A DNA stretch of 64,000 nt from a virus, in the IMG/VR virus record IMGVR_UViG_3300034018_000240. The stretch is one strand, 5' to 3'. The position numbers were made by a program, and so were the translations under genes. Positions 806 through 33,414 of the stretch are shown piece after piece; position 1 is the stretch's first letter, and every line of letters starts with the position of its first letter. The notes below the pieces were generated by a model, which did not search any database, was not told where the DNA came from, and saw only the letters and a program-made list of their open reading frames with translations.

Positions 806-975
806 AGCTTATAATTGTTGTAAATGACCAAAATAAATACTCAGCATTCACAGCTACGTATGGGTCATGTTTTTGTATGTTGTTCATCAAACTGACTGTA
901 GGGAACAACACCACTTGCCACCAATGGCTCTTTTTAGTGGGTAATGTATTATACATTTTGAAGTTTAATTTCATG

Positions 976-2660: not shown

Positions 2661-2874
2661 GTTCTCTGTTTAGTATTTTGTCTTTATCAATTACTACTAT
2701 CTGAGCAGGCAGTTTTATTCTTCTAAACTCCTCTTCAAGTATCTGTTGTGTCTCTTGCAAATATACTAAATCTTTGAGAGATTCTCTCTCCCAATCTTCA
2801 TTAATTTGTAGATTTTTCATCTTTTTTATATTGTGCGTTGTTCCAAAAGAATGGACATGCCACTGTAATAACAC
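2629..2874 (-). CDS. small hypothetical protein; probable true start at ATG 2820 (MKNLQINEDWERE..., 63 aa)
   Basis: The ORF-track start is a GTG directly preceded by an in-frame TAG. An ATG lies at 2820. No motifs. Confidence 0.25.
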   Translation of the reverse strand: MLLQWHVHSFGTTHNIKKMKNLQINEDWERESLKDLVYLQETQQILEEEFRRIKLPAQIVVIDKDKILNREHEHQSNPLPF

Positions 2875-3028
2875 CTAGTGTTACATCATGTTCATCTAAC
2901 ATCATGTTCACTTTATATGGGGGATCTGAAAAATATGATTGTCCCAACTCATCAGGAATTGCTGTATATCTATGACAATTTAGTCTTAACATACAACTAC
3001 CACCTTTACAACATGAAATATCTGGCAT
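2801..3028 (-). CDS. small Cys-rich protein (75 aa) containing an FSDPPY motif
   Basis: MPDISCCKGGSCMLRLNCHRY...SYFSDPPYKVN. DPPY is the catalytic motif IV of N6-adenine/N4-cytosine DNA methyltransferases, but the ORF is far too short to be an MTase and no FxGxG motif follows. Confidence 0.3.
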   Translation of the reverse strand: MPDISCCKGGSCMLRLNCHRYTAIPDELGQSYFSDPPYKVNMMLDEHDVTLGVITVACPFFWNNAQYKKDEKSTN

Positions 3029-3029
3029 C

Positions 3030-3305
3030 TTATTTGTTTTTATGATTAATGTATATACGTAGTGTCTTATGTGTATCTTCTATCAAAGCTATCACTTTGG
3101 CATTCTTATCCCAATTGTAATACTTAACTACACCATCTTCTACAACTTCAATTTGTGTAACTAGTGTAGTGTTTAATATATTTTTACTAGGTAGAGGTAG
3201 TTTGTTTAGGGATATGTCCCTTGTACTCATTGGTCTGTGATAAGGATATTTTCCTGACATATGTTTAGTTTTAATTATTCTGCTGCATAACCAAAGAATA
3301 TCCAC
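3030..3305 (-). CDS. hypothetical protein (91 aa)
   Basis: ORF in the co-oriented early block; no motif. Confidence 0.3.
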   Translation of the reverse strand: MDILWLCSRIIKTKHMSGKYPYHRPMSTRDISLNKLPLPSKNILNTTLVTQIEVVEDGVVKYYNWDKNAKVIALIEDTHKTLRIYINHKNK

Positions 3306-3832
3306 TCACCATCTCTTTCTGTTGGTGATTTTTTGTATGTTATCTTAGCTACTAAGTTGTCACCTTTCTCTAAGAACTTCTTGATTACTATTGATGTAGT
3401 TACTTGATACTTTTCTGTATATTTACGAGCGTCTTTTACAGCATCCCCTTTTGTATCCCATGAACCAATAACATGATCACCACGTTGAACAACATATTTA
3501 AGTACCCACTTCTTCGTACCTGGTGTAACTATGTGCTCCACTTGAGATTGAGTCTTGTTCTTATTACCTACAGGTTGTACAACACATATAGCTGAACAAT
3601 CACGTTTGTTCATAGCATGACTATCAAATCTGTCACGTATGTAAGCAGATACATCATTAAACTTACTTTTCTTATATGCTTCTGTTTCATCTCTAAATCC
3701 ATGGGTAGTACTAATTGTACCATTGTAGCCATCTTGATGACCATACTCAAGTTCAGCTTCTTCACAAGCTCTGTTATATGCTTCTTCTGCTGTTTTACCA
3801 CCATATCTTGCTTTAAATTGACATGCTCCCAT
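3275..3832 (-). CDS. hypothetical protein (185 aa)
   Basis: Long ORF, co-oriented; no recognisable catalytic motif. Confidence 0.5.
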   Translation of the reverse strand: MGACQFKARYGGKTAEEAYNRACEEAELEYGHQDGYNGTISTTHGFRDETEAYKKSKFNDVSAYIRDRFDSHAMNKRDCSAICVVQPVGNKNKTQSQVEHIVTPGTKKWVLKYVVQRGDHVIGSWDTKGDAVKDARKYTEKYQVTTSIVIKKFLEKGDNLVAKITYKKSPTERDGEWIFFGYAAE

Positions 3833-3843
3833 AATTATTTATT

Positions 3844-4029
3844 TTATCTGCCATTCCAGGCAGGTGATGTAAATGAAATTCCTCCTTCTGTTCTATGATT
3901 GTTATTAATCTGATTGTCAGATGGTTCATCGTCTTCTTCATCTTCCCAATCGCAATGATCCCTACATTCAGGACAAATGTCTATCTCAGGCATACGAGAG
4001 TATGCCCCACAACATGTTGAATAAGCCAT
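3844..4029 (-). CDS. small zinc-ribbon-like acidic protein (61 aa)
   Basis: CC..(x)..CPEC..HC cysteine/histidine spacing followed by the acidic run DWEDEEDDEPSD. Confidence 0.4.
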   Translation of the reverse strand: MAYSTCCGAYSRMPEIDICPECRDHCDWEDEEDDEPSDNQINNNHRTEGGISFTSPAWNGR

Positions 4030-4040
4030 AAATTTTAGTT

Positions 4041-4442
4041 TTATTTTACTTCAATGTGATTCCTACCATCATTCCAATAACTTATGTCACCATACCATAC
4101 AAAGATTTCTTCGTCTGGTTGTATGAGCTTTGTAGCAACAAACTCAAATGTGTTGCGTTCTATGTTGGATCTCCAAGCAGCGTTGGCTGTGTCTGAATGA
4201 TTATAGAATGAACCAAACCCACCAGCTACCACTTGTTTCTCCCATCCTGATCCACCACCCTGTGGCCAATTGAATCTGTAATCTATGACACAAGGAGAAA
4301 CTTCTCCATTCTTCATACCTACATCAAAAAAGGGACACTCTTCTATGATGTCCCCTTCAAATATTACCTTGTCTGCAAATACTCCCCAGCCATGTATGCT
4401 GCTTGGAGCCATGTAGACTTTTGTTGATTGATAGATACGCAT
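4041..4442 (-). CDS. SET-domain protein lysine methyltransferase (minimal viral vSET-like, 133 aa)
   Basis: GWGVFADKVIFEGDIIEECP matches the SET N-region (compare chlorovirus vSET GYGVFARKSFEKGELVEEC, quoted from memory). GFGSFYNHSDTANA matches the NHSxxPN pseudoknot motif. EEIFVWYGDISYW matches the EELxxxYG post-SET motif. Size fits minimal viral SET proteins. Confidence 0.8.
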   Translation of the reverse strand: MRIYQSTKVYMAPSSIHGWGVFADKVIFEGDIIEECPFFDVGMKNGEVSPCVIDYRFNWPQGGGSGWEKQVVAGGFGSFYNHSDTANAAWRSNIERNTFEFVATKLIQPDEEIFVWYGDISYWNDGRNHIEVK

Positions 4443-4444
4443 AA

Positions 4445-4717
4445 TTAATCTTTTATTCTCAAACCAAACTGTAAGTCAAACCATTGAAAGTTTGCCTCAG
4501 CTCTTGATTTGTTTATTTTAAATACTTTCTTCATTAATGGAATAGCGTAAGCTTTAAACTGATCATGTTGTTCTTGTGTCATAGTCCATTTGCTATACCA
4601 TTCTTTAGTCATAAATGCTTCTTGTGTAGACTTACCAATCATTCCTAATTGATAGTCTACTAAATGATCACCTATGTTCTCTCTATTTATCTTTGCCATG
4701 CTTTTTGATTTCTTCAA
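4445..4717 (-). CDS. hypothetical protein (90 aa)
   Basis: Co-oriented ORF, no motif. Confidence 0.4.
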   Translation of the reverse strand: MKKSKSMAKINRENIGDHLVDYQLGMIGKSTQEAFMTKEWYSKWTMTQEQHDQFKAYAIPLMKKVFKINKSRAEANFQWFDLQFGLRIKD

Positions 4718-4907
4718 TTACTTCATCCCAGTATTGTGGATCATTATCTAGTCCAGAACCCATCCACATATCTTTGGCTTTTGTATCCATTATTTCATGT
4801 GCTGTTAGCGATGCACAGTCTGCTGCTTTATATATATCTCCAACTATGGATAAATGATTGAGTACGAGATATGCTGCTTTTACTTTTGCTTCCATTGTGT
4901 GTCTCAT
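4683..4907 (-). CDS. hypothetical protein (74 aa)
   Basis: Co-oriented ORF immediately upstream of polB (1-nt stop/start overlap); no motif. Confidence 0.4.
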   Translation of the reverse strand: MRHTMEAKVKAAYLVLNHLSIVGDIYKAADCASLTAHEIMDTKAKDMWMGSGLDNDPQYWDEVIEEIKKHGKDK

Positions 4908-6859
4908 TAGAATAAACTCATTTGATTAGGATTAACAATAACTTTACGTTTCTTACCTTCTAGTTGTATCTTGTGTATTATGCGTTCAGCACGCTCAATA
5001 TAATATGCATGATTGATGTTGTCCAGAGGATGATCTGATGTTAGATGATTACATACATGCATCACCCAATCACCTGCTTCCACTTGTGATACATCAACAG
5101 CTGTGCTATCTGAATTCTCGTTCTTCACCTTCAGTAGCTTCTCTCCTGTATTAGATACATAATATCTAATCAGCTTGTTATAGACTGTCTTCGTCTCTTT
5201 GCTGTGACCTTCGTAATGAAAGTCTTTACTAGCTTTCTGTCTGAGACAAAAGTCATATATATTTGTATGATTGCGAATGGTATCAGCCACAGGCACGTCA
5301 TTAACAAAAAAATGCTCAAGTGCAATAGGGACAACCCTAGCACTCTTATTTTTGTGTAGTTCAAAGTCTGTAAGGAAGTCACCCTTCTTTTTGATTTCGC
5401 CATCTGTTTTGATTGCTAGATAGTCATTTACTGTCGAGAATATAATCTTAGCATAGTCTGTACGTTCTAACTCATAACTGGTTAGATCCATCCACCACTT
5501 GTTAATCTCATGCATCTTCTCAACTTTGTCTTTGTGCACCTTGATTGTCACACCATCTGTATTTGCAGATATAATGTTTATACCAGCTAATTCATATGCT
5601 TCGATGAGCATCAGAAGACTTAGTTCTCCTGTGATGGTTGTGAACATTGTGAGCTGTCTGTCATAGATCCAAGACTGCATGTCAGAAGACTTACCATAAA
5701 CTGAATTGACTGCGAGTTTGAGTGCTCCAACAATACCTTTAATCTTTTTATCCTTTTTAGCAAGAGGCTTGAGCTCCAATCTTTTATCAAACATGGTTTT
5801 GTATCCTCTAAGGAACTCAGGGCCCAAATGATGAGGATATTTACCATTATTAATAATGATAGCAGGGTAATAACTGGATACATCCCAATCCACAATAATA
5901 TAATCAGCATCAGCTTCAAATATCTTAGGCTTGTTCTCTGTATGTAAGCCACCCTTTGCAAAAGTGTATATGTTGTCATAAAACTCTAATGATTCTTTAA
6001 ATTCATCTTTGATAGTTAGTTTCTCTTTGCTAATTGCTTTTAAGAACTGTTGTAGTTTTGGTGTCTGGAATGTAATGTAATCAGCAATACAATGTCTCAC
6101 CTTTACTTCAGTTCTAAACAAGCCTTTCTTTGGTAAATCAGAATATAATATGTTCTTTTCTTGACAATAGAACTTCTTAATCATCTCATCACCAATCTTA
6201 CTATCAGAATAGTTTAAACATGGTATGCCAAACTCTTCTTCAATATCTTGTCTGAGCTCTATCTGATTATTGCCCTTATACAATGGATGCTCAGTTTGAC
6301 CTATTGTTACCTTGTAGAACTCATAGGTAGCCATAACATCATTCTTACAATAGTCTTTAGTCAGTTGAATCTCTTCATCTGTCATGTTAATCTTTGTATG
6401 ATGTATAGGCATCTCTTCAATGTTCTCTAGATCCATCTCAAACTCTAGTCGTTTCAGTGAGACCATTCTATTCTTGTTATCATAGTGGTTCACTCTGAAT
6501 ACATCTATCTGCTTAAGTGTAAGCCATTCTTCTCTGTACTCAGGAAATACATCATAGTTAGCATCATGGATAATATCAGCAGCCTTTTGTGCTATCTTAG
6601 CAGCTGTCTCAAGAGCTGTGAGCTCATGCCAGTTTTCATAGTTACGCAAGATCCACTCAATCACTTGAGAGTCAAAGCGTAAGTTATTATAACCAACCCA
6701 ATAGTATTCAGGATGTTGTTCAATAAATCTCATATACCCATCTAGTTGGTTCTTATCCTTACTCACTTCAAACTCTGTATAAGTTTTGCTCCCAGGATTA
6801 TATATGCCAATGAGGAATAACTCCTGCATTGTCTCAATATCATAGATGAGTATATTCAT
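4907..6859 (-). CDS. family B DNA polymerase with 3'-5' proofreading exonuclease (650 aa)
   Basis: Exo I IYDIET, Exo II YNNLRFD, Exo III YCKNDV. Pol motif A DWDVSSYYPAIII (DxxSLYPS), motif B KLAVNSVYGKSS (Kx3NSxYG), motif C-like ISANTDGV (variant of YxDTDS). Compact size and motif B resemble phi29-type protein-primed polymerases. Confidence 0.85.
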   Translation of the reverse strand: MNILIYDIETMQELFLIGIYNPGSKTYTEFEVSKDKNQLDGYMRFIEQHPEYYWVGYNNLRFDSQVIEWILRNYENWHELTALETAAKIAQKAADIIHDANYDVFPEYREEWLTLKQIDVFRVNHYDNKNRMVSLKRLEFEMDLENIEEMPIHHTKINMTDEEIQLTKDYCKNDVMATYEFYKVTIGQTEHPLYKGNNQIELRQDIEEEFGIPCLNYSDSKIGDEMIKKFYCQEKNILYSDLPKKGLFRTEVKVRHCIADYITFQTPKLQQFLKAISKEKLTIKDEFKESLEFYDNIYTFAKGGLHTENKPKIFEADADYIIVDWDVSSYYPAIIINNGKYPHHLGPEFLRGYKTMFDKRLELKPLAKKDKKIKGIVGALKLAVNSVYGKSSDMQSWIYDRQLTMFTTITGELSLLMLIEAYELAGINIISANTDGVTIKVHKDKVEKMHEINKWWMDLTSYELERTDYAKIIFSTVNDYLAIKTDGEIKKKGDFLTDFELHKNKSARVVPIALEHFFVNDVPVADTIRNHTNIYDFCLRQKASKDFHYEGHSKETKTVYNKLIRYYVSNTGEKLLKVKNENSDSTAVDVSQVEAGDWVMHVCNHLTSDHPLDNINHAYYIERAERIIHKIQLEGKKRKVIVNPNQMSLF

Positions 6860-7125
6860 AATTGTTTATTTTTGTTAGTCCATCCATTTGCCATGTGTTC
6901 TTAAATGCCAAAATCTATGGCTTAACACTGCAACTATTATACCCCAAAATGTATCAGCTTCATATGAGCCTTCTTTAACTATTAGTTTCATATTATCTTT
7001 TATATGTTTTAATGTATTCTTTAATACACCATTTAATCATGTCCCATAGATAATATCTTTGTTTTGATTTAGAAAGCTTGTGTAAGCTTTCATAATAACT
7101 AAAATATTCATTCATAATTAGAAGT

Positions 7126-7392
7126 TTATTTCTCTTTTACTGATTTCTTAGCTGTTTTCACAGACTTTTTACTCTTATTAGAAATATAGTTCTCTTTACT
7201 ATCTAATAATGTAAGAAACGCTGCACTAATAACATCATATAAATATTTATCTTCAAGCATAGCTGATGCAAATGATGCAGCTAATATTGTTTTATCACCA
7301 TCGTCATCATATAATGTATGTACAGTGCCATCACCTATAGACATAAAGAAATGAGCTTTGAGCTTTGCTATTTGTGCTTTACTTTTTGCCAT
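7126..7392 (-). CDS. hypothetical protein with lysine-rich C-terminal tail (88 aa)
   Basis: C-terminus KSKKSVKTAKKSVKEK is histone-H1-like/basic; possible nucleic-acid binding (speculative). Confidence 0.45.
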   Translation of the reverse strand: MAKSKAQIAKLKAHFFMSIGDGTVHTLYDDDGDKTILAASFASAMLEDKYLYDVISAAFLTLLDSKENYISNKSKKSVKTAKKSVKEK

Positions 7393-7476
7393 ATTTATCT
7401 TTTAAACGTTGATAAACATAAGTTACCATATATGCCCAGCATATCACTGCTAAGACTATTTGAATGTAGAATAAAA

Positions 7477-7686
7477 TCATAAATTTATATTATATCTTTC
7501 TAATGAGATGTTCTTACAGAATCTAATCTCTTTGTTTGTTAATGTCCATATTTGTCCATCATCCATAGCACATGTAAATAAAAGGTTATGCTCCTGGCTA
7601 TAATCTATAACCAAAAAAGCATAACCTTCCATTTTATCAGATACCCTTACTATTGGTATCATTGGATTTAATTGCAGAATCATCAT
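7477..7686 (-). CDS. hypothetical protein (69 aa)
   Basis: Small co-oriented ORF. Confidence 0.3.
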   Translation of the reverse strand: MMILQLNPMIPIVRVSDKMEGYAFLVIDYSQEHNLLFTCAMDDGQIWTLTNKEIRFCKNISLERYNINL

Positions 7687-7781
7687 CTTTATTTGTATTA
7701 TCGTCTATAAATGGGGCATTTATCCATTCAACTATGATCCATACCCAAACAAGTAATACAAAGATAATAAAATAAATCATG

Positions 7782-8021
7782 TCAATAGTTTTTAAATCTA
7801 ATAAGTTTATACTCATCAGAGCTGATATACATATATCTGCGTCCTTTGATGTGTAATCTCTTAGATGGTTTATAATTTGCTTTCACAGCAAATATACTAT
7901 CTATTAGTTTAGAACAAGAATTAATTGTTCTTCTATAAGAAGAATCTTGTTGGTCTGGTTCGTACACTGTAATTGTATGTGTGCAATGTGGTTTTGCACT
8001 AAAGATTAGGCTGTAAGACAT
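7782..8021 (-). CDS. hypothetical protein (79 aa)
   Basis: Small co-oriented ORF; start preceded by CCAACACACATG, which resembles the AACACAC upstream motif of the 9485 and 9907 genes. Confidence 0.3.
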   Translation of the reverse strand: MSYSLIFSAKPHCTHTITVYEPDQQDSSYRRTINSCSKLIDSIFAVKANYKPSKRLHIKGRRYMYISSDEYKLIRFKNY

Positions 8022-8039
8022 GTGTGTTGGTATTAGTGG

Positions 8040-8348
8040 TTAAAAGAAGAATGTCATACCTGTTTCAGATATCTCTATCTTTGTAGGCTTTCTAAACGTA
8101 ACAGATCTTTTAAGAGGCATCTTTGTAGATACTGTCTTTGTCATAACTGGTTGACGTCTAGTGCGTTGTGGTGCCATGTCTAACATTTTAATGTAAACAC
8201 CATTAACTGGTCTGTTAAGACTGTTAGCTACAAACTTTGATAACTTAGCCATGGACATAGGCTTTGCAGTCTTTTTGTTGTCCATCATCATTGTCTTGAT
8301 TGTTCTTAATTCCTTCTTGGAATAGTTGTTTGATCCTTTCTTTCTCAT
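8040..8348 (-). CDS. hypothetical basic protein (possible later start near 8252-8291)
   Basis: Overlaps the upstream ORF by about 100 nt as drawn. K/R rich. Confidence 0.25.
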   Translation of the reverse strand: MRKKGSNNYSKKELRTIKTMMMDNKKTAKPMSMAKLSKFVANSLNRPVNGVYIKMLDMAPQRTRRQPVMTKTVSTKMPLKRSVTFRKPTKIEISETGMTFFF

Positions 8349-8646
8349 TTTGCTTTATTTTTTTGTTTAGTAAATACTGTTTTCTTTTAATTCTAGCTTC
8401 CTTTCTTTTCTTATTATGTTTCTTATTAATAGGTCCAGCTTGTTGCTGTCTCAATATTTGTTTTGGTGTTGTATCAAGACTAGTTAGCGTTTCACCTATT
8501 TTAGCTGATAAAGCTGTTCTAGGTTTTAATGGTAAAGGTATATTATGATGACTCATATGACCAGTATCAACACTTAAATCAATCTCTTTCACCAAACGTG
8601 GAGGGTTTTTAATCCTTCTCTTTCTTGTATTTCCTTTTAATATCAT
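8245..8646 (-). CDS. hypothetical highly basic protein (133 aa)
   Basis: KKHNKKRKEARIKRKQYLLNKKIKQNEKERIKQ low-complexity basic region. Sits immediately downstream of the 8671-8697 terminator, so probably the first gene of a new transcription unit. Confidence 0.35.
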   Translation of the reverse strand: MILKGNTRKRRIKNPPRLVKEIDLSVDTGHMSHHNIPLPLKPRTALSAKIGETLTSLDTTPKQILRQQQAGPINKKHNKKRKEARIKRKQYLLNKKIKQNEKERIKQLFQEGIKNNQDNDDGQQKDCKAYVHG

Positions 8647-8670
8647 ACGCTCTTCTATTTTATGTGTAAT

Positions 8671-8697
8671 AAAAAAGCCCTACATTTCTGCAGGGCT
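8671..8697 (-). terminator. rho-independent terminator for leftward transcription
   Basis: Minus-strand reading AGCCCTGCA-GAAA-TGTAGGGCT (9-bp stem with one G-U, GNRA tetraloop) followed by TTTTTT. Lies between the stop of 8717-8977 and the start of 8245-8646. Confidence 0.55.
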
Positions 8698-8716
8698 CTC
8701 GCTTACTAACCACACA

Positions 8717-8977
8717 TTAACCTAACCTTAATTTATTATCGTCCCATAATGCACTGACATTTAACTCTTTACACCATTGGTTGAACTTTTCACGCTCTGT
8801 AGGTGTAAATGGTTTGTTAATCTTTACAGTGATTTTGGGTCTGTCTTCTGTCTTTTGCTTGTTTTTAAATAATTCTAAGATATTTCTCATAGCTATTTCG
8901 TTTTGAATGTTAATATTATTCTGTTTCATGGTCTGCATCATTTGGTTCAGGATCATATTCAGTGAGGTCATCTTCAT
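8717..8977 (-). CDS. hypothetical protein (start probably at an internal Met, about 8935-8971)
   Basis: Co-oriented ORF followed by the intrinsic terminator. Confidence 0.35.
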   Translation of the reverse strand: MKMTSLNMILNQMMQTMKQNNINIQNEIAMRNILELFKNKQKTEDRPKITVKINKPFTPTEREKFNQWCKELNVSALWDDNKLRLG

Positions 8978-9485
8978 CTAAATCATCCTCCCAATCCTCA
9001 TCATCATCATCATCGTATTCATGCTCATCCACAAAACTTACATGTCTAATAGTCACCTTATCATGAAAAAAGACTACATTTCTATGTATACCTTCTTCAT
9101 CTTCAGAGTCAAATACTTCCAATGCTATATCACCATTCTCACCATCTTCACCATAAACATAGGCATTAATGATTTGAACTGTGAGGTCTTCCAAGTCATC
9201 AGAACTATCACCTTGGTCCCACCAACCTATTTGGTCAGGTGTTGCAAGGATTTCTTCTTTATCATCCTTATTCTGTGTTGGCATAACAATGTATGGCTCA
9301 ACTGGTGCACCATTGAAAGCAATGTAGCTTTCCATATCTTGTGGTATGTGTGTTAGTTCATGGAGTTGTAGGTATTCATATACCTGTCCATAAACCACAT
9401 CCTTTTGCTTTGATGCAAACCACATGCCTTTCTCTAGTTGTCTAGGCATATATGATTTGAATACAAGTTTAGCTAGTGTAAACAT
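8916..9485 (-). CDS. extremely acidic protein (189 aa; C-terminal about 60 residues almost entirely D/E)
   Basis: C-terminus FDSEDEEGIH...HEYDDDDDEDWEDDLDEDDLTEYDPEPNDADHETE. Start codon preceded by AAAAACACACGATATG. Confidence 0.5.
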   Translation of the reverse strand: MFTLAKLVFKSYMPRQLEKGMWFASKQKDVVYGQVYEYLQLHELTHIPQDMESYIAFNGAPVEPYIVMPTQNKDDKEEILATPDQIGWWDQGDSSDDLEDLTVQIINAYVYGEDGENGDIALEVFDSEDEEGIHRNVVFFHDKVTIRHVSFVDEHEYDDDDDEDWEDDLDEDDLTEYDPEPNDADHETE

Positions 9486-9498
9486 ATCGTGTGTTTTT
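9486..9498 (-). promoter_or_regulatory. conserved AAAAACACACGAT element abutting the start codon (minus strand)
   Basis: Minus-strand reading AAAAACACACGAT-ATG. Confidence 0.3.
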
Positions 9499-9628
9499 AG
9501 TGTATGTTAGCAAATATAGGTTAATTAGTTAATATAAGGACCCAGCTAGGGGAAGCTGAGCCCTATATATCTCACACAAACTAACCACTAATATTGTATT
9601 GTTATAAAGTCAGGTAATTCGTTCATGG

Positions 9629-9907
9629 CTAAAGTGTGTTAGTTAATTTCTCTTGTTTATATTCTTCCACTGCTATTTTAAGCTTCTCTCTTTGTTGATG
9701 AGCATAATCTTCAGTGACAAAACTAAGCTCCATCGTGTTATCTGTTCCTGGTTCAGAACAGCGTCCACCATACTTAAGCTTACCTAAATGTCCCCAAAAG
9801 TACATATCTCTAACCATCTCAATGGCTTCGAGTTCGTCTTCTGTCTCTCTAATAATCTTATAACCACTCAAGTTGTTGTTGTCATCCCTAATTAGTTCTA
9901 GTTTCAT
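9629..9907 (-). CDS. hypothetical protein (92 aa)
   Basis: ORF preceded by TAAACACACGATTATG, the same upstream motif as the 9485 gene. Confidence 0.45.
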   Translation of the reverse strand: MKLELIRDDNNNLSGYKIIRETEDELEAIEMVRDMYFWGHLGKLKYGGRCSEPGTDNTMELSFVTEDYAHQQREKLKIAVEEYKQEKLTNTL

Positions 9908-9920
9908 AATCGTGTGTTTA
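9908..9920 (-). promoter_or_regulatory. conserved TAAACACACGATT element abutting the start codon (minus strand)
   Basis: Minus-strand reading TAAACACACGATT-ATG; near-identical to the 9486 site. Confidence 0.3.
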
Positions 9921-10258
9921 GAATGTGTGTGTAAAAAGCGAATATATAGCCTAATGTTGCCTCAGCTGTATATTCTTATGTGTATGTCATAACGCAACAA
10001 ATAAAATCCCTCTGTACTCAAATGTATAATCTGTGGTTCAGGCTCATACGTCCTTTATGATAGTCCACCCTACCTCTATGTCTAGACCATAGATTAATTG
10101 ATTATACATTTGTCTATCCTTGGGAAATAGAAATGGTACATTAAATGATTAAATAGCTGTATTACAATTCAATTACCTCCAAGCAAATAAGCTTGATAGG
10201 ACGTAATAGGTCATGCATAACCTTTTACAACTATTTAATCAATATAATAAAGAGCAGA

Positions 10259-10498
10259 CTAATTGCCTGCTCCAATATCCTGAACAAAATAGAACTCACC
10301 ACCATGAATGAGTCTAATACCACCATATAATATACCATCTATATGAACAAACTTATCCAACACACCTTGTATTGGCAATTCCATAGACTTAATACTATCA
10401 ATAGAGACTTGTTCACTCTCTATAAAGAAATCATCCTTACTAATAGGACTAATGTTATTGCCAAATAATGTATAGGCAAGTTGTTGTGCGTTATTCAT
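10259..10498 (-). CDS. hypothetical protein (79 aa)
   Basis: Isolated ORF flanked by AT-rich intergenic DNA. Confidence 0.4.
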   Translation of the reverse strand: MNNAQQLAYTLFGNNISPISKDDFFIESEQVSIDSIKSMELPIQGVLDKFVHIDGILYGGIRLIHGGEFYFVQDIGAGN

Positions 10499-10660
10499 AT
10501 AAATGCTATTTAATGCTATATATATTGTATTGTATAGCGTGAATTAATGTATCTTGAAAAGATAGCTAAAAGGGCCTATTAAGCACACACCTCTTCAAAC
10601 ATTCACACGAAATATATTGATTATCAGTGTGTTATATTGTCTGAAGTCTTGATGTTGTAT

Positions 10661-10685
10661 AAAAAAGGGGGCACGAGGCCCCCTT
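10661..10685 (-). terminator. rho-independent terminator for leftward transcription
   Basis: Minus-strand reading GGGGGC-CTCGT-GCCCCC followed by TTTTTT. Starts 3 nt after the stop of the 10690-11097 gene. Confidence 0.6.
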
Positions 10686-10689
10686 AATG

Positions 10690-11097
10690 CTAGTAAGCAG
10701 CTAGTTCTTCGTAACTAACAGCTTGCTTAGCAGTGCTATCAATTACAAATTCTTCTTCTTCACCACCTTTACCAACTGGTGCACAGATTGTAGTGATCTT
10801 ACCATCAAGGCTTTCACAAATGTTAAGCTTCAAAATGGCAGCAATCACGTCTCTTTTAGGTGCCCCATTATCAAGAGCGTTCTTCACAGTCAAGCTAACT
10901 CTCTTACTTAATGGACAAGTGGTGCTTGTACCATCTTTTAGTGTTAATACCATTGACATTGCTTTGATGACACCATCATTGAACCTGCTGATAGTACCTG
11001 GACAAAACTTAACGCTTCCACCTGCGTGAAGACTTGCAACTGTTCCCAATTCAGTTAGCTTAGGAGTGCTAACAAACTCTTTGTACATTAGTGCCAT
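10690..11097 (-). CDS. hypothetical protein, first gene of the leftward early arm (135 aa from MALMYKEFVS...)
   Basis: The ORF track extends to 11199 through the G-rich regulatory repeats. The Met at 11097 is the plausible start. The gene is insulated by its own strong terminator. C-terminus GGEEEEFVIDSTAKQAVSYEELAAY is acidic. Confidence 0.5.
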   Translation of the reverse strand: MALMYKEFVSTPKLTELGTVASLHAGGSVKFCPGTISRFNDGVIKAMSMVLTLKDGTSTTCPLSKRVSLTVKNALDNGAPKRDVIAAILKLNICESLDGKITTICAPVGKGGEEEEFVIDSTAKQAVSYEELAAY

Positions 11098-11119
11098 TGT
11101 TTTTCGTTTTAGGCTGTTA

Positions 11120-11570
11120 ATTAATAGGGGGGATGTGTCGATCCCCCAATTGTAGGAGGGGTGGCAAGCTGGAAGTACCCTCTCCTCCCATGGACACAAT
11201 AGGGGTAGGGGGTATGTAAAATTTTTGGTAGGGGGTTGTTAATTGTTCCATGTGGAACATTCTGTCTAAGCAATTGAAGACTAGGGGGTTAGCTGGCCCA
11301 AGTGTTAAATGTTGTGTCACACTTTTTCAAATATTTGTGACAGATTTGGCAAGTTATAACAAGTCTATATTCTGCCAAAAGTCAAGCTATAGCTTTACCC
11401 TAGGGGATGTTTAGTCAAGGGATAGCTTTACATAATGTGTCTTATTATACCCATAAGCATATAGTTTGGTCTTTATAAGGGACATTATATCTTAGGGCAT
11501 ATAAAAATAAATTTGGTGGGTATAAATATTTACCTGTATCTTTGGGGGGGATTTAGGGGGGGCCCCATCT
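11120..11570. repeat. divergent regulatory hub with TAGGGG(G) iteron-like repeats, short palindromes and G7 tracts; candidate early promoter/operator region and/or replication origin
   Basis: TAGGGG(G) copies at about 11125, 11152 (variant), 11200, 11205, 11229, 11282, 11401 and 11554. Inverted repeat GGGGGAT-GTGTCG-ATCCCCC at 11128-11147. Palindrome TGTTCCA-TG-TGGAACA at 11244-11259. GGGGGGG-ATTTA-GGGGGGG-CCCC at 11544-11566. Transcription polarity switches here. Confidence 0.5.
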
Positions 11571-11601
11571 AATACCTCTCTATTAATTAAAGCTTTGATA
11601 T

Positions 11602-11844: not shown

Positions 11845-11907
11845 TATAGCATTAACTTTTATAATAACTAAAATAGTTATTTGTAGATCGTCCAGATATA
11901 CATACCT

Positions 11908-12273
11908 TTGTATCAACTAATTATGGAAGCAAAACCAATTGTACAACGACTAAAGACTTCAGTCAATGACAGTATTGTCATGGCTGAGAAGTATTATAGA
12001 ATCTTGTCAGCTGTCAATGACCTGAAGCTTACAAAGAGGGAGATACAATTGATAGCCTTTGCTGCTATAAAAGGGAACATCTCTTATGCTAATATACGTA
12101 AGGAGTTTTGTGAAAGATACGACAGTACGTCCCCAGCCATAAATAACATTATCTCCAAACTAAAGAAGATGGGGATATTTGTAAAGGATGGGACAAAGGT
12201 GAAGGTTAATCCCATCATCTTGCTCAACTTTGAGAAAGATCTTGTATTGCAAATAACTCTAGCACATGGATAA
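11908..12273 (+). CDS. hypothetical early protein (121 aa)
   Basis: Co-oriented ORF at the start of the rightward arm. Confidence 0.45.
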   Translation: MYQLIMEAKPIVQRLKTSVNDSIVMAEKYYRILSAVNDLKLTKREIQLIAFAAIKGNISYANIRKEFCERYDSTSPAINNIISKLKKMGIFVKDGTKVKVNPIILLNFEKDLVLQITLAHG

Positions 12274-18926: not shown

Positions 18927-19036
18927 AGTAAAAAATATTAATGCTATATTATATTGAATAATGGTCAATATAAAGGCTCCTCTCTTTGCTATTAACTTAA
19001 GTTACTTTACTTTTACATACAAAACCAATTAAAACT

Positions 19037-19045
19037 CAACTACAT
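19037..19045 (+). promoter_or_regulatory. conserved CAACTACAT element abutting the start codon
   Basis: aaaactCAACTACATATGg. The same 8-9-mer is flush against the ATG at 22109 and 32164. Confidence 0.35.
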
Positions 19046-20329
19046 ATGGCTGAAAATCTAGATATGCCCCAAATGGGTAATTTTAGTATTCAAGATACTA
19101 TGGATATGGGAATGGGAAGTCAAGAGTTATTAAATGACTTGTTATCTCCTGATAGTGCTACATCTAACCCTGATGACATTCAGGATATTAAAGATGAACC
19201 TACACCTGCATCCACAAAGAAAACTACTTCTAAACAACCAGCTACATCAGCTCCTGCTCCAGAAGATGATAAGAAAGAAGAAGCTCCTGTAAAGGACATT
19301 CAAAGTTTCTTATATGGAGATGAAGATGATGAAGATGCTGAAGAAGATGATGACGCTCCTGCAACAGATAAAAAACCAGTTGCAAAAGGTGCTGATAATC
19401 AAGAAGATAGTAATGAAGATGGTGAAGATGGTGAAGAAGCAGTTCCTAACCAATTCGAAGCTTTATCAAAAGATCTTTTAAAACTAGGTGTCTTTTCACA
19501 AGACGAAGATGAAGAAGAAACAGTTATTGATAGCCCTGAAGCTTTCTTGGAAAAGTTCCAAGCAGAGAAGAAAAAGGGAGCTATTGAAATAGTAAACAAC
19601 TTCATTGGTCAGTTTGGAGAAGATTATCAAGAAGCATTTGATGCCATATTTGTAAAAGGAGTTAGTCCAAAAGACTACTTTAGTGCATATAATCAAATCC
19701 AATCTTTCTCTGATATGGATTTAAGCGATGAGAGTAATCAAGTTGCTGTTATTAAACAAGCATTGACAGATCAAGGATTTGAGCCTGAAGATGTTACAAC
19801 AGAGATTGAAAGACTTAAAAATTATGGTGACTTAGAAACTGTTGCTGCTAAACACCACAAAGTCTTGATAAAAAAGGAAGCGTCAAAGCTTCAACAATTA
19901 GAGCAAGATAAACAAGCTCAATTACAACAGCAACAAGCCATCAAGCAACAATACTTACAGAATGTAAACAATGTTTTACAAGAGAAGATTAAAGCTAAAG
20001 AATTTGATGGCATACCAATTAACCCTAAATTAGCTGGTGAACTACAAGATTTCCTAGTAACAGACAAGTACAAGACAGCATCTGGAGAAACTCTCACAGA
20101 CTTTGATCGTACTATACTGGAGCTGAAACGTCCTGAGAATCATGAGAAGAAGGTCAAACTTGCTCTATTGATGAAAATCATTGAGAAAGATCCTACACTA
20201 TCTACTATTCAAAAGACAGGTATCACCAAAAAGTCTAATGAATTATTTGGTGAGGTTGCCAGACAAGCCCAGAAGAGTTCAGTGAAATCTAAACAGTCAG
20301 CTAGACCTACTTCTTCTTGGTTTCAATAA
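19046..20329 (+). CDS. acidic coiled-coil protein, probable scaffolding protein (427 aa)
   Basis: D/E-rich N-terminal half (DEDDEDAEEDDD), Q-rich coiled coil (QQLEQDKQAQLQQQQAIKQQ). Located between portal and the putative capsid gene. Preceded by the CAACTACATATG motif. Confidence 0.5.
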   Translation: MAENLDMPQMGNFSIQDTMDMGMGSQELLNDLLSPDSATSNPDDIQDIKDEPTPASTKKTTSKQPATSAPAPEDDKKEEAPVKDIQSFLYGDEDDEDAEEDDDAPATDKKPVAKGADNQEDSNEDGEDGEEAVPNQFEALSKDLLKLGVFSQDEDEEETVIDSPEAFLEKFQAEKKKGAIEIVNNFIGQFGEDYQEAFDAIFVKGVSPKDYFSAYNQIQSFSDMDLSDESNQVAVIKQALTDQGFEPEDVTTEIERLKNYGDLETVAAKHHKVLIKKEASKLQQLEQDKQAQLQQQQAIKQQYLQNVNNVLQEKIKAKEFDGIPINPKLAGELQDFLVTDKYKTASGETLTDFDRTILELKRPENHEKKVKLALLMKIIEKDPTLSTIQKTGITKKSNELFGEVARQAQKSSVKSKQSARPTSSWFQ

Positions 20330-20364: not shown

Positions 20365-21918
20365 ATGGCAATTCAAACAATTCCAGGTTTAACTGGATTT
20401 ACTTATGCTCGTGTCGCTTCTATGGATAAGCGTGCAGTAGGTAAGTTAACTGATGCAAACCATTTAGAGAGCTTTCACTCTACAGAGCCTGCAGACTATG
20501 ATAAGAAGATTATCAGTTTGTACACTCAGAGTTCTCTTTATAGTAATGACTTCTTAGACATGATCAACAAGTCTACTCCTTACTATATTGATAACAACAG
20601 TGATGCTTGGAAATGGCAAGTACAAGTTCCTTACAAATTCCCAAAAATCATTGATGTTCCTACAAGCACATTAGAATTAAACAAACCTGGTATTGATGGT
20701 CAAGAATTCCAATTGATTATTGATACTAATGAGTTCTCTAAGAATGCAATTATTTCTGTAGGTACTCGTCAGTATGGTCCTCGTTTCTACGTAGTAAAAG
20801 ATCCTGTTCCTTGGAACGTAGGTTTCTTATACACTTTCACTTTGGTGAGTGACAATCCTACAGTAGATTTCGTAAGTGCTACATTCTTACAAGTGGGTAT
20901 CGAACTAGAATTAGTTGATGCTGCAATTGGTGAATTCGATCAAGACTTATTAGGTCTTCCTCGTTTAGGTGAGCAAATCACAATGTTTGAATCTTTAGGT
21001 TCTGCATATGGTTATGAGCACAAAATCACTGAGTGGGCTGATGATAAGATGATGAGAGATACAAAAGGTAATCCATTGGATATCTTAGTATACGCTCCTC
21101 AAAGACGTAACCAATTACCTTTAACTCGTAATGATGTTAAGTGGGAACCATTTATTGAGTTCTGGATGCGTAAGTCTATGTTAGAATTAAAAGTTAAGCG
21201 TATGATCTGGGCTCGTCCTGGAACTGTGAAGACTAATGGTTCTAAGCAAGAATTAAAGCGTACTTCTGCTGGTGTATATCACAGAATGCGTAACAATGGT
21301 AACTTAGTACAGTACAACAGAGGTGAGTTCACTGCGAACTTAATTCGTTCTGTATTTGGTGACTTATTCTACAGACGTGTGGATGTTAAAGACAGACGTG
21401 TTAAAATGTACACTAATGAAGCTGGCTTTGACGTATTCCAACAAGCTTTAAAGACAGATGCTTTGAATTCTGGCTTAACTTTCATGGCTGATTCTGGTAA
21501 CAGATACATGCAAGGAGAAGGACAACACATCACTTACAACTTTGCATTCGATGCAATGGTAACTCGTGAGACTGGTCGTGTTGAATTAATCCACTTGAAA
21601 GAGTTAGACCTTCCTCAAACAAATTTAGAATTTGGACAGAACAAGAAGTCAACTCCAGTATTTATGGTGTTTGATGTATCTCCAATGTCTGATGGTTCTA
21701 TGATCAATAATATTCGTGAAGTACGTATGAAGGGTGCACCTTCTATGACTTGGGGTTATATCGATGGTACTCGTCACCACTTAGGCTTTGCTAAGTCTCA
21801 AGGTATGAGTTCTGCGAACAAGTTCCCTGGATATGAGATTTGGATGAAGGATCGTTGTGATGTATTCATTGAAGATTTATCTAGAACAGTATTGATTGAA
21901 GAAATTCCTCAATTCTAA
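20365..21918 (+). CDS. putative major capsid protein (517 aa)
   Basis: Size and position (after scaffold, before a stem-loop cluster) fit crAss-like HK97-fold MCPs. No direct motif evidence. Confidence 0.5.
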   Translation: MAIQTIPGLTGFTYARVASMDKRAVGKLTDANHLESFHSTEPADYDKKIISLYTQSSLYSNDFLDMINKSTPYYIDNNSDAWKWQVQVPYKFPKIIDVPTSTLELNKPGIDGQEFQLIIDTNEFSKNAIISVGTRQYGPRFYVVKDPVPWNVGFLYTFTLVSDNPTVDFVSATFLQVGIELELVDAAIGEFDQDLLGLPRLGEQITMFESLGSAYGYEHKITEWADDKMMRDTKGNPLDILVYAPQRRNQLPLTRNDVKWEPFIEFWMRKSMLELKVKRMIWARPGTVKTNGSKQELKRTSAGVYHRMRNNGNLVQYNRGEFTANLIRSVFGDLFYRRVDVKDRRVKMYTNEAGFDVFQQALKTDALNSGLTFMADSGNRYMQGEGQHITYNFAFDAMVTRETGRVELIHLKELDLPQTNLEFGQNKKSTPVFMVFDVSPMSDGSMINNIREVRMKGAPSMTWGYIDGTRHHLGFAKSQGMSSANKFPGYEIWMKDRCDVFIEDLSRTVLIEEIPQF

Positions 21919-21950: not shown

Positions 21951-22080
21951 GACACCTCTGGTGTTTCGCATAAAAAAATCAGAAGACGTTCCCCCCACAT
22001 CCCAGTGGGGGAGTCTTCTAACACAGATGGACATGTACAAGTAAATTCTGTACAGTGTTCCCTTCGATGGGAACCATCTG
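21951..22080 (+). terminator. cluster of three stem-loops downstream of the putative MCP gene (terminator / RNA-stability elements)
   Basis: Hairpin GACACC-TCT-GGTGTT (21951-21965), then TTTCG. Long GC-rich hairpin GAAGACgttCCCCCCAC-ATCCCA-GTGGGGGAGtcTTC (21982-22018), preceded by A7. Hairpin CAGATGG...GTTCCC-TTCGAT-GGGAAC-CATCTG (22024-22080). No canonical U-tract on the plus strand. Confidence 0.4.
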
Positions 22081-22099
22081 CAAATAAACCAAATAAAAA

Positions 22100-22108
22100 C
22101 AACTACAT
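22100..22108 (+). promoter_or_regulatory. conserved CAACTACAT element abutting the start codon
   Basis: aaaaaCAACTACATATGg, downstream of the stem-loop cluster. Confidence 0.35.
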
Positions 22109-23077
22109 ATGGGCAAGATAGGAAAAATATCTACTATTAAAAAAGACTACAACAATTCTCAGTTACAAACAATGCAAGGTGGACTTGCATCAAGAGGCTA
22201 CACAAGAATTCCTGGTACAGGAGTTTTTAAATATCCTTATAAAGAATTGGATGGTCAGTACAGAACAGGCTTAGATCCAAAGGCTGCTTACATCAGAAGA
22301 ATCTCTGATCCTCTTGAAAGAGAGATGGAGATTGAAAGAGTAACAGAATTAAGAGACAAGCTAGAAGCAGCATTAGGTGGTGTTGACTTAGGTCCTCGTT
22401 CTCAGTTCTGGAACTATGGCTTATCAACTTCTGTTGATGATTCCTTACACGTACAACCTGTTAAGCTTATGGATGGCGACAATTATTATGATTTGTCAAT
22501 GCCATTGCAAGAGCTAGCATTCTCATGGTTGAGAGTTCATCCAACAATTGCTTCTAGCTATCAAGCTTGGGAGCGTGGTGAATTCCCTGCAGACATTCAA
22601 TATTATGTTGCAGATGATGAGATTGAAAACAAGGTGATGTTTAAAAAGAAACAACTTATTAATAAAGCTATTGTTAAGTTTGATTCTATGACTCCTGAGA
22701 AGAAGAAGAAAGTGGCTCGTCTACTTGGTCTTCCAGTATCTGATGATTCTAAAGAAGAAGCAGTTTACAATCAGGTGGATAACCTCCTAAAACAAACAGA
22801 ATTCAAGAATGGCAAATATCAAGGTTTGAACCCTATAGAAGTGTTCAACAGATTTGCAGATATGAAAGAAAACTTGCTCCATATCAAAGACCTAGTAAAA
22901 CAAGCTGTTGCTCATTCAATTTATAGAGTGAGACCTAATGGTAGAGTTTTTGAAGGTGAATTTGAAATAGCAGTTGATGAAGATGATTTAGTTAAATTCC
23001 TTGCAGATGAAGACAACCAAGATCAGTTATTGACTTTGGAAGGCAAATTAAAAGGAAAAAAAATAGCCTCATTATGA
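22109..23077 (+). CDS. structural protein of unknown function (322 aa)
   Basis: Preceded by the CAACTACATATG motif. Lies in the head/tail morphogenesis block. Confidence 0.5.
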   Translation: MGKIGKISTIKKDYNNSQLQTMQGGLASRGYTRIPGTGVFKYPYKELDGQYRTGLDPKAAYIRRISDPLEREMEIERVTELRDKLEAALGGVDLGPRSQFWNYGLSTSVDDSLHVQPVKLMDGDNYYDLSMPLQELAFSWLRVHPTIASSYQAWERGEFPADIQYYVADDEIENKVMFKKKQLINKAIVKFDSMTPEKKKKVARLLGLPVSDDSKEEAVYNQVDNLLKQTEFKNGKYQGLNPIEVFNRFADMKENLLHIKDLVKQAVAHSIYRVRPNGRVFEGEFEIAVDEDDLVKFLADEDNQDQLLTLEGKLKGKKIASL

Positions 23078-25632: not shown

Positions 25633-25785
25633 ATGGCAAACTGTAGAGGATGTGGCATGAAAGTTGGATGTGGCTGTCAGTTGATTAATGGCCTATGTTC
25701 AGCTTGTCACAACAAAGCAAAAAATGCTCTAAAAAGATTAAAAGATGCTTACACCAAGATTGACAGATTGTGTAATAAATGGTAG
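25633..25785 (+). CDS. small Cys-rich zinc-ribbon-like protein (50 aa; below the ORF-track cutoff)
   Basis: MANCRGCGMKVGCGCQLINGLCSACHNKAK... CxxC-x5-CxC-x6-CxxC. Overlaps the start of 25745-26020 in another frame. Confidence 0.3.
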   Translation: MANCRGCGMKVGCGCQLINGLCSACHNKAKNALKRLKDAYTKIDRLCNKW

Positions 25786-26020
25786 TATCCCAGCAACTCT
25801 TACACAAATTGATGCAAGGTTGACATATTGGGCAAATATTGAATATAACAATATCTCCTTTTCTACCAATACTTACATCCCTGGGGATGTAATAGGAGAT
25901 TTACTAAATTACAAACGTATATTAGAATATAGATCTTGTAATCCAGATTATGCTATGGTGTGTGGTCTTCCCACTACCTCTCAAGTTATAAGCAGGGTTA
26001 AAATTCTAATTAATAAATAA
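25745..26020 (+). CDS. hypothetical protein (91 aa)
   Basis: ORF-track ORF. Overlaps the small Cys-rich ORF by 41 nt, so one of the two may be spurious. Confidence 0.3.
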   Translation: MLTPRLTDCVINGSIPATLTQIDARLTYWANIEYNNISFSTNTYIPGDVIGDLLNYKRILEYRSCNPDYAMVCGLPTTSQVISRVKILINK

Positions 26021-32019: not shown

Positions 32020-32049
32020 CCCCTAGGGTTTCTACCCTGGGGGTTTTTT
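32020..32049 (+). terminator. rho-independent terminator
   Basis: CCCCTAGGGT-TTCT-ACCCTGGGGG (10-bp stem including one G-U) followed by TTTTTT. Confidence 0.7.
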
Positions 32050-32155
32050 GTTTAAACTCTAACTAAAAAAGTTATTCTATATAATTAAATTAGTTAACAA
32101 AATTTTGAAAATGTCAAAAATAATTCCTACCTTTACAGTAATTTTAACTAAACTA

Positions 32156-32163
32156 AACTACAT
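32156..32163 (+). promoter_or_regulatory. conserved AACTACAT element abutting the start codon
   Basis: ctaaactaAACTACATATGc, 110 nt downstream of the terminator. Confidence 0.35.
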
Positions 32164-33414
32164 ATGCCTGAAAATCAATCCTTGCTGCAACAGCTAGAAG
32201 AGATTCTACACTGGAAAAAAAGTAAAAAGTTCTATGCTGATAAGCTTGGAATTACAGAGTTTGAGGTGGATGAGCTATTAAAAGAATTAAGAAATCAAGA
32301 GAAGAGTGAAGAAGATGCTGAGATAGGGAACTATATTGCTGATCTAGAAAACAGGGTTATTAAGTTTACAGAAGATCTAGCTAAGGGTACAGGAGAGGTT
32401 GTAGCCAACTTTAGCGAAGAGGTTAAGAGTTTAGACGAACTCATTGAGAAATGTAAGATAGATACAGAGAAGTGGGAGATAACCAAATATGTTCAAAACT
32501 TCTGGGGAAATGGAAACAATCCTCATTGGCAAGTCAAAGCATGGTTAGGGAAGAAGTCTACAGAACAAGTTTTTCAAGATGTGTTTGTAGACTTTTTAGC
32601 TTCATATAAGCCTGTGTCTCAAGAAGTTATGAGTCCTAAGGTTGACTTTAACAAACCAAATGGTATGTTAGTTATCAACAAACAAGACTCTCACTTAAAC
32701 AAATGGGACATAGATGGTAATAATAATGTAGCAGATAGACTAGCTAACATTATGTACAAGGTGGAACTGATAGCTAATCAAGCTCAGTTATCCAACAACT
32801 TGCAGAACATAACTTACATAATAGGATCTGATGAGTTTAACAGTGAGTATACAAATGCCACTACAAAAGGAACTCCTCAACAGAACACGCATACATATCA
32901 TACATCTTTTGAATACATCTGTGGACATGAGGTGTTAATGATTACAATGTTATTACAATATGCTCAGAATGTAAATGTAATCTATGTGGCAGGTAATCAT
33001 GATGAGTTTGTAGGTTGGCATTTAGTTAACTGGTTACAAACCTACTTCAGAAATACAGAGAGATTAGCATTTGATTTATCTCCTAAGTATAGAAAGTATG
33101 TAAGCTATGGTGATTCAGCATTGATGTTTAACCATGGAGATGCTATCAAACCAGCTAAGCTTGCAGCTTTATTCCCAATAGAGTTTAGAGAACATTGGTC
33201 TAGTCATAGCAAGTTTTACATTTTTACAGGAGACAAACACCATGAGGTGAGTCATGATTTCAATGGTATAAAGTTTTATCAAATTCCAGCATTTTCAAAT
33301 GCTAAAAGTCTTTGGGACGACAAGATGGGTCACACAATGTCCAAGGCAGAAGTAACAGGATTTTTAATAGATGACTGTGATGGGATGACAAATATATTCA
33401 AACAGTATTTATAA
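32164..33414 (+). CDS. calcineurin-like metallophosphoesterase family protein (416 aa)
   Basis: Ordered motifs QDSH (DxH), IGSDE (GDxxD-like), YVAGNHDEF (GNHD/E), NHGD, TGDKHHEVSHD (GHxH-like). Preceded by the AAACTACATATG motif and an AT-rich promoter-like region. Confidence 0.55.
   Translation: MPENQSLLQQLEEILHWKKSKKFYADKLGITEFEVDELLKELRNQEKSEEDAEIGNYIADLENRVIKFTEDLAKGTGEVVANFSEEVKSLDELIEKCKIDTEKWEITKYVQNFWGNGNNPHWQVKAWLGKKSTEQVFQDVFVDFLASYKPVSQEVMSPKVDFNKPNGMLVINKQDSHLNKWDIDGNNNVADRLANIMYKVELIANQAQLSNNLQNITYIIGSDEFNSEYTNATTKGTPQQNTHTYHTSFEYICGHEVLMITMLLQYAQNVNVIYVAGNHDEFVGWHLVNWLQTYFRNTERLAFDLSPKYRKYVSYGDSALMFNHGDAIKPAKLAALFPIEFREHWSSHSKFYIFTGDKHHEVSHDFNGIKFYQIPAFSNAKSLWDDKMGHTMSKAEVTGFLIDDCDGMTNIFKQYL

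Follow-up and report, generated by a model that had tools for sequence, protein, structure and literature searches.

A near-invariant word beside the start codon of a few late genes in an uncultured crAss-like phage: a candidate translation-initiation leader

Introduction

Three late genes of an uncultured phage carry the same short word immediately in front of their start codons, and the question raised by this locus is at which level, DNA or RNA, such a word would be read, and by what. The classical signal at this place, the Shine-Dalgarno sequence, is purine-rich and GGAGG-like, complementary to the 3' end of 16S rRNA, and located 5-10 nt before the start codon. Bacteroidia are described in PMC6847099, in the account given there, as ignoring Shine-Dalgarno sequences and relying on upstream features of the mRNA, and a Kozak-like context has been reported for Flavobacterium johnsoniae, with A at -3 and -6 (and at -12/-13) when the A of AUG is counted as 0 (PMC6847099).

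The word was noticed in a first-pass annotation of a 64,000-nt stretch of viral DNA (IMG/VR record IMGVR_UViG_3300034018_000240), referred to below in its entirety as the window. Two roles were proposed there: the word may mark the transcription start sites of near-leaderless late mRNAs read by a phage-specified polymerase or sigma factor, or it may be a translation-initiation element. We compared the window with more than 200 related metagenomic contigs and weighed these two readings together with three others.

Results and Discussion

Phage and host context

The window begins with a minus-strand gene block (positions 1-11200) that includes a gene for a DnaB-like helicase, followed by a plus-strand late block with a terminase-sized ORF, a P22-like portal gene, the major capsid protein gene (20365-21918, + strand; phrog_11589, E = 1e-32), the gene for a crAss-type muzzle protein (Pfam crAss_MUZ, E = 8e-30) and an ORF of 4145 amino acids. 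Crassvirales-like phages are characterized by a crAss-type virion module (muzzle protein, P22-like portal and HK97-type capsid gene order), a giant virion protein and a Bacteroidota host; of these traits, the muzzle protein and the portal have family matches in the window, and we call the phage crAss-like in this provisional sense. The 4145-residue ORF (51161-63598) has no match in Pfam or PHROG; its position would suit a giant virion protein, or an ejection protein, of the crAss-like kind. Cultured relatives were not found by megablast, and the sole tblastn match to the capsid protein was a Leptolyngbya phage (26% identity). IMG/VR contains more than 593 near-identical relatives of the capsid protein. 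Three phage contigs were deposited under Bacteroidota names (a Sediminibacterium MAG, a Kapaibacterium MAG and a 'Cytophagia bacterium' record), and these are weak evidence for a Bacteroidota host, in agreement with the promoter type described below. Gene starts in the window lack Shine-Dalgarno sequences and have A-rich upstream regions. A generic sigma-70 promoter and terminator scan was uninformative for this type of host, since its promoter-like matches did not exceed those in shuffled sequence.

Several further features of the window were recorded in passing. The divergent region between the two gene blocks (11200-11600) contains the G-runs TAGGGG, GGGGG and GGGGGGG, ends with two host-type promoter matches (11512-11544 and 11880-11910), and may be an early promoter or origin region. 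Two genes of the early block (starts at 9485 and 9907), both of which follow long spacers, have the minus-strand word AAACACACGAT(T)ATG at 9486-9496 and 9909-9919; the signal is weak in the window, at two occurrences versus 0.8 expected with one mismatch allowed. The ORF annotated at 25745-26020 probably begins at 25634 (MANCRGCGMKVGCGCQ..., Cys-rich), in which case the apparent 113-nt spacer before it would be coding. Neighboring genes of the late block share identical opening codons, ATGAGTTGGGCA at 29109 and 29822 and ATGTCTTG at 26029 and 27208, which suggests tandem paralogues.

A box word tied to start codons and to one strand

The identical box reported at three late gene starts was borne out. 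The 11-mer AACTACATATG, which spans the box and the ATG, has three exact matches in the window, at 19038-19048, 22101-22111 and 32156-32166, all on the + strand, where 0.13 are expected from dinucleotide shuffles. The box itself, the 8-mer AACTACAT, occupies 19038-19045 (site 1), 22101-22108 (site 2) and 32156-32163 (site 3) on the + strand, in each case flush with the ATG of a long ORF (19046-20329, 22109-23077 and 32164-33414, respectively). The long intergenic regions described before these sites proved to be the longest spacers of the plus-strand block, at 119, 190 and 175 nt, and the A-rich tract described just upstream is found directly 5' of the box at all three. None of the three starts has a Shine-Dalgarno sequence upstream. 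The genome-wide motif count that had been proposed as a check came out enriched for the 11-mer and not for the bare 8-mer, which occurs 10 times in the window versus 5.8 expected; the signal of the box lies in its position at start codons and in its strand. The reverse complement of the box does not recur above chance in the window.

Among the related contigs (1.34 Mb), the 11-mer is found 161 times on the gene strand and not once on the opposite strand, and almost all copies are at gene starts. Across these relatives the core of the element is the 8-nt box, with the rare variant AACTAAAT, and the gap between box and ATG varies from 0 to 3 nt, so that the ATG is not part of the element. The variant arises at either site 1 or site 2 independently, including at site 1 of the most distant genome found, L418.

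Host-type promoters and a G-free leader

The promoters of Bacteroidota sigma-A combine a -33 TTTG with a -7 TAnnTTTG element (PMC9723704), the latter about 5 nt ahead of the transcription start and the former some 19-21 nt further upstream, and a predicted promoter of this type, TTTG-N19-TACTTTTA, is located upstream of site 1 at 18985-19015 (+ strand). The pattern TTTG-N18-21-TAnnTTTN is retained there in 133 of 140 unique relatives, with the end of the -7 box 28-35 nt from the ATG, and the distance between box and promoter varies by 8 nt. Site 3 has its own predicted promoter, TTTG-N20-TACCTTTA (32104-32135, + strand), which is present in all 32 unique relatives, ends 26-29 nt before the ATG, and is preceded by an intrinsic-terminator-like hairpin with a T-run (32020-32053, + strand). 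Upstream of site 2, the same promoter pattern was found in none of 117 sequences. In Flavobacterium the -7 box extends from -12 to -5, and the median 5' UTR is 24 nt (PMC9723704); by this geometry, transcription is predicted to start near 19020 and 32140, giving sites 1 and 3 leaders of about 22-31 nt.

The box is the 3' module of a larger unit, a G-free, unpaired leader of about 25-30 nt whose 5' module is AAACCAA. In the window the 5' module is at 19022-19028 for site 1 (leader about 19020-19045) and at 22086-22092 for site 2, both on the + strand, and the order common to the two sites is AAACCAA, a gap that is not fixed but ranges from 5 to 14 nt, and then the box. The composite AAACCAA-N3-14-ACTACAT is found twice in the window, at sites 1 and 2 only, versus 0.01 expected; site 3 has the box without the AAACCAA module or the remaining leader. 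G makes up only 16 of 3832 leader bases in the relatives (~0.4%), with 9 of 1875 at site 1 alone, and RNA folding predicts the leader to be unpaired. The earlier view that the box is distinct from both the -7 box and the Shine-Dalgarno sequence agrees with these data, as it contains no TAnnTTTG-like motif and the leader is nearly free of G.

At sites 1 and 2 the leader starts a few nucleotides past a predicted 5' boundary of the RNA, which at site 1 is a transcription start and at site 2 is set by the structured RNA or tRNA that ends there. In relatives, AACCAA of site 1 starts 7-11 nt after the end of the -7 box (one outlier at 14), and the predicted start would therefore place AAACCAA at the very 5' end of the site 1 transcript, with AACCAA at about +3 to +7. 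Two contigs, L326 and L365, begin 8-9 nt before AAACCAA, and we considered whether these termini might represent RNA ends; they were set aside because they lie a few nucleotides upstream of the predicted ends and because an assembly break at a repeated or conserved leader is a simpler explanation.

These observations bear on the proposal that the box marks leaderless or near-leaderless late transcription starts used by a phage polymerase or sigma factor, the leader itself being the promoter. In its favor, about 27 nt of conserved sequence run up to the ATG of late genes preceded by long spacers, site 2 lacks a recognizable host promoter, and crAss-like phages encode polymerase subunits for which a late role has been speculated (PMC8375218). 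Late transcription in crAss-like phages is, however, thought to depend on the host polymerase (PMC8375218), and at sites 1 and 3 a canonical host promoter is kept 26-35 nt upstream. Full strand specificity and anchoring to the ATG are as expected of a function in RNA, and the leader of the gene 12609 orthologue shares sequence with the end of the ORF before it. The promoter of a T7-like single-subunit polymerase is a rigid block of about 20-23 bp with fixed spacing that ends at the start site, a pattern from which the leader departs in the variable gap between its modules and in shifts of the box by 1-3 nt. With host promoters at two sites and a variable gap, transcription initiation at the box is not supported by the sequence comparison, and we regard it as highly improbable.

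The box is distinct from Bacteroidota sigma-A promoters. Such promoters are conserved upstream of sites 1 and 3, but the box itself is located 20-27 nt downstream of the -7 element (box end at 28-35 nt), and at site 2 it occurs without any promoter.

A covarying structured RNA upstream of site 2

The spacer between the capsid gene and site 2 holds RNA structure in place of a promoter, and folds well below its shuffled counterparts (z = -6.5). A long GC-rich hairpin, GAAGAC...GTCTTC, without a U-tract, follows the capsid gene at 21982-22018 (+ strand), and its inner helix is 98% paired among relatives. Immediately downstream is a three-way-junction RNA (22024-22080, + strand) with the outer stem CAGATGG/CCATCTG and two arms, the second of which has a loop that always starts with TTC. 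Covariation supports the junction: compensatory changes on both sides were found in 17 of its 26 pairs, junction cells are paired at 96% versus 40-48% when the partners are slid, and the covariation score is 0.505 versus 0.04-0.11 for slid partners. A gap of 5-7 nt separates the end of the junction from AACCAA in the leader of site 2.

The junction has no match in Rfam at E <= 1. We also considered it as a tRNA or tRNA-like element and rejected this, as ARAGORN reports none in the window and Rfam none; its sole resemblances to tRNA are the loop starting with TTC and its position beside true tRNA-Met genes in relatives. Three contigs carry such a tRNA-Met(CAT) between the junction and the site 2 leader (L189, 12339-12413; L220, 6649-6720; L224, 8148-8219). 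The anticodon stem of the L220 and L224 tRNAs has three G:C pairs, which is initiator-like, and the L189 tRNA has a C1xA72 mismatch; degenerate tRNA-like remnants are present at the same place in L192 and L219. Independently of the box, the covarying RNA beside site 2 represents a separate class of structured RNA that lacks annotation, and the structured region as a whole (21982-22080) could act on the capsid mRNA as a signal for processing or for stability.

Transcripts in which tRNA and mRNA are joined and tRNAs act as punctuation are familiar from the E. coli tRNA-tufB operon and from mitochondria. The site 2 leader recalls them in starting a few nucleotides past a structured RNA, or past tRNA-Met in L189, L220 and L224, and differs from them in that the three-way junction is not recognized by ARAGORN or Rfam and that any processing here is putative.

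This processed-looking context (hairpin, three-way junction and, in some relatives, tRNA) lends some weight to a reading in which the box, which contains ACA and UAC, is the recognition or cleavage site of an endoribonuclease that trims late mRNAs to leaderless or near-leaderless forms or controls their stability, and the exact conservation of its sequence would suit an enzyme site. Removal of the leader, however, would make AAACCAA and the near absence of G pointless, and leaderless mRNAs are rare in Flavobacteria, at 5.5% (PMC9723704); we consider cleavage at the box very unlikely.

The genes behind the box

The gene at site 1 (19046-20329, + strand) encodes a protein of 427 amino acids and is flanked by portal-side genes on one side and by the major capsid gene on the other; from this position alone we call it scaffold-like. 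It matches phrog_16294, a family of unknown function. Its product has more than 4700 homologues in metagenomes, no match to PDB sequences, and a weak helical match to FlgN that falls below threshold. Directly 3' of the capsid gene, the site 2 gene (22109-23077, + strand; 322 amino acids) belongs to phrog_16383, likewise a family of unknown function, and has thousands of metagenomic homologues; a sequence search of the PDB gave no meaningful match for its product, and the AlphaFold2 model (pLDDT 58) was unusable. The gene at site 3 (32164-33414) is nuclease-like and matches phrog_704.

Conservation and portability of the leader

Conservation in related phages, another of the proposed checks, was confirmed for sites 1 and 2, where the box is near-invariant, and not for site 3, where only a few close relatives have it. 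At site 1 the box is identical in 67 of 67 copies, drawn from 80 capsid-anchored loci, while the encoded protein varies at 61-88% identity; in 41 unique site 1 sequences, positions -8 to -1 are 100% conserved, while the leader varies in its middle part and codons vary at their third positions. At site 2 the box is exact in 72 of 80 relatives, the remainder being shifted by 1-3 nt or slightly degenerate. In the most distant genome found, L418, whose capsid protein is 88% and whose site 2 protein is 65% identical to those of the window, site 2 has the canonical box, and site 1 has AACTAAAT followed by TTT. No lineage was found, L418 included, in which both sites had altered the box in concert.

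At site 3, by one count 3 of 45 relatives have the exact box, and by another 5 of 32 unique sequences; the other relatives have CGTAA, CATAA, CATAT or CCTACAT at this position. The site 3 box is a lineage-specific gain of the window's closest clade.

As controls we took six other gene starts of these contigs, and their columns -8 to -1 are conserved at only 50-90%. They include the start of the capsid gene, which differs from the boxed starts and is not invariant: it has a single invariant column in -8 to -1, with the protein being 93-100% identical.

The leader is also found before genes other than these three. In several relatives (L033, 10768-11076; also L035, L062, L072, L235, L277 and L284), the position exactly 3' of the site 2 leader is taken by an inserted, free-standing gene for an HNH endonuclease (phrog_2255), and the gene that it displaced has a second, degenerate version of the leader, ..AAACCAA..ATTACATT ATG. 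In some relatives the orthologue of gene 12609 carries the leader. A family of 338-residue proteins of unknown function, phrog_4417, has an AAACCAA..AACTACAT leader in L211 (gene at 2284-3300) and L222, on contig stretches without a homologue of any gene of the window, so that the leader may also occur elsewhere in the genome or in phages outside this group.

We further considered the leader as a general start region of host genes and rejected this: we searched 596 Gb of bacterial and archaeal genomes and obtained 105 matches versus about 100 expected by chance (a rough, composition-based estimate), almost all of them inside coding DNA. Only two of the matches are the phage itself, binned in MAGs.

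It might be argued that the box has no function and reflects chance, a recent duplication or gene conversion between spacers, or the DNA target of a homing endonuclease. The bare 8-mer is not enriched in the window, the match at site 3 is young and lineage-specific, and in some relatives the HNH gene inserts exactly behind the leader of site 2. Such an origin is nevertheless hard to reconcile with a box that stays invariant before the genes at 19046 and 22109 while their proteins diverge to about 61-65% identity and control starts drift, with a strand bias of 161 to 0, or with the otherwise unrelated spacers that flank sites 1 and 2 (promoter versus structured RNA). We find the absence of any function barely plausible.

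A candidate leader for Shine-Dalgarno-independent initiation

On the sequence evidence, the box is anchored to the start codon and not to the transcription start, because its gap to the ATG is only 0-3 nt while the distance of the ATG from the -7 box varies over 28-35 nt, and because the upstream context differs among the sites, being a promoter at sites 1 and 3 and structured RNA or tRNA at site 2. The second role proposed in the first-pass annotation, that of a translation-initiation element, fits all the data as far as sequence can speak to it (strand specificity, ATG anchoring, an unpaired and G-free leader, and conservation). In our preferred interpretation, to which we give about an even chance of being right, the element is a cis-acting mRNA leader that promotes the start of translation, independently of Shine-Dalgarno sequences, at a few late genes.

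The leader would have the form 5'-N1-7 AAACCAA N5-14 AACUACAU N0-3 AUG and would set a high rate of Shine-Dalgarno-independent initiation, acting in cis on the RNA. Its main targets would be the two genes that flank the capsid gene, of which the upstream one is scaffold-like. In primary transcripts initiated at the host sigma-A promoters of sites 1 and 3 it would be the 5'-terminal sequence, and at site 2 it would lie directly 3' of the structured RNA or tRNA in a read-through transcript, where it would probably be exposed by RNA processing. We infer that the element functions at the level of the mRNA, that its effect is on initiation, and that it is read by the ribosome (by way of S1 or of the mRNA channel) rather than by a dedicated factor.

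The HNH gene, the 12609 orthologue, the 338-residue family and the gain at site 3 all speak of portability and count in favor of a translation leader. Against it are the observations that the capsid gene, presumably the most highly expressed, lacks the leader, that no host genes use it in the 596-Gb scan, and that no joint change of the box at sites 1 and 2 was found, which would have proved a common reader. The box also departs from the A-3/A-6 rule of Bacteroidia in having C at -3 and C at -6, and the upstream A-rich tract fits only the -12/-13 part of the Kozak-like context. An A-rich and unstructured character fails to explain the exact conservation of eight nucleotides, which indicates a specific reader.

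The same exactness, exceeding what composition requires, could also reflect an operator at which a trans-acting regulator of phage or host origin, either an RNA-binding protein or a small RNA, binds AACUACAU beside the AUG and represses, activates or times the translation of a small late regulon. The restriction of the element to a handful of genes, the scaffold-like gene included, would suit such an operator, as would the mismatch to the A-3/A-6 rule and the absence of the element from host genomes. On the other side, no candidate RNA-binding protein was identified in the window and no complementary small RNA was found, and the capture of the leader by HNH and unrelated genes better suits a strong expression signal than a regulon. 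We regard an operator as the main rival reading, though a rather unlikely one.

T4 RegA targets and the post-transcriptional autoregulation of P22 scaffolding protein are established cases of translational control. Like these operators, the box is a specific element beside the AUG in a handful of phage genes, a scaffold-like one among them; unlike them, it has also been captured by selfish and unrelated genes, and any regulator is here putative. Closer to a translation leader are the T7 gene 10 'epsilon' leader and the CA-rich omega leader of TMV, which are translational enhancers; epsilon acts together with a Shine-Dalgarno sequence, and pairing to E. coli 16S rRNA has been proposed for it. 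The phage leader shares with epsilon and omega a short, unstructured, G-poor and A/C/U-rich sequence before late or structural genes of presumably high expression, portability to other genes and, as we infer here, action at the mRNA level. In contrast to epsilon, it has no Shine-Dalgarno sequence, and its conserved core abuts the AUG. It also resembles initiation in Bacteroidia in being A-rich, unpaired and devoid of a Shine-Dalgarno sequence (PMC6847099; PMC7797042; PMC13000457), and differs from it in that C is found at -3 and -6, that an exact word takes the place of a composition bias, and that the box occurs in a few phage genes and is absent from bacterial gene starts.

A bolder version of the translation leader would have AACUACAU, 0-3 nt before the AUG and combined with a 5'-terminal AAACCAA, act as a sequence-specific start-site selector, a functional substitute for the Shine-Dalgarno sequence, with either some feature of 30S subunits in Bacteroidota or an initiation factor encoded by the phage as its reader. 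It would privilege a few late mRNAs, which would be released from a polycistronic transcript by a novel three-way-junction or tRNA 'punctuation'. This is speculative, and we think it unlikely to hold in this full form.

For start-codon choice without Shine-Dalgarno sequences in Bacteroidota, only weak, composition-like determinants have been documented (PMC6847099). An invariant 8-nt word beside the AUG is a sharp determinant by comparison, and it is found in a very abundant group of uncultured freshwater phages. If the box proves to be a strong and portable leader, it would provide a practical expression tool for Bacteroidota.
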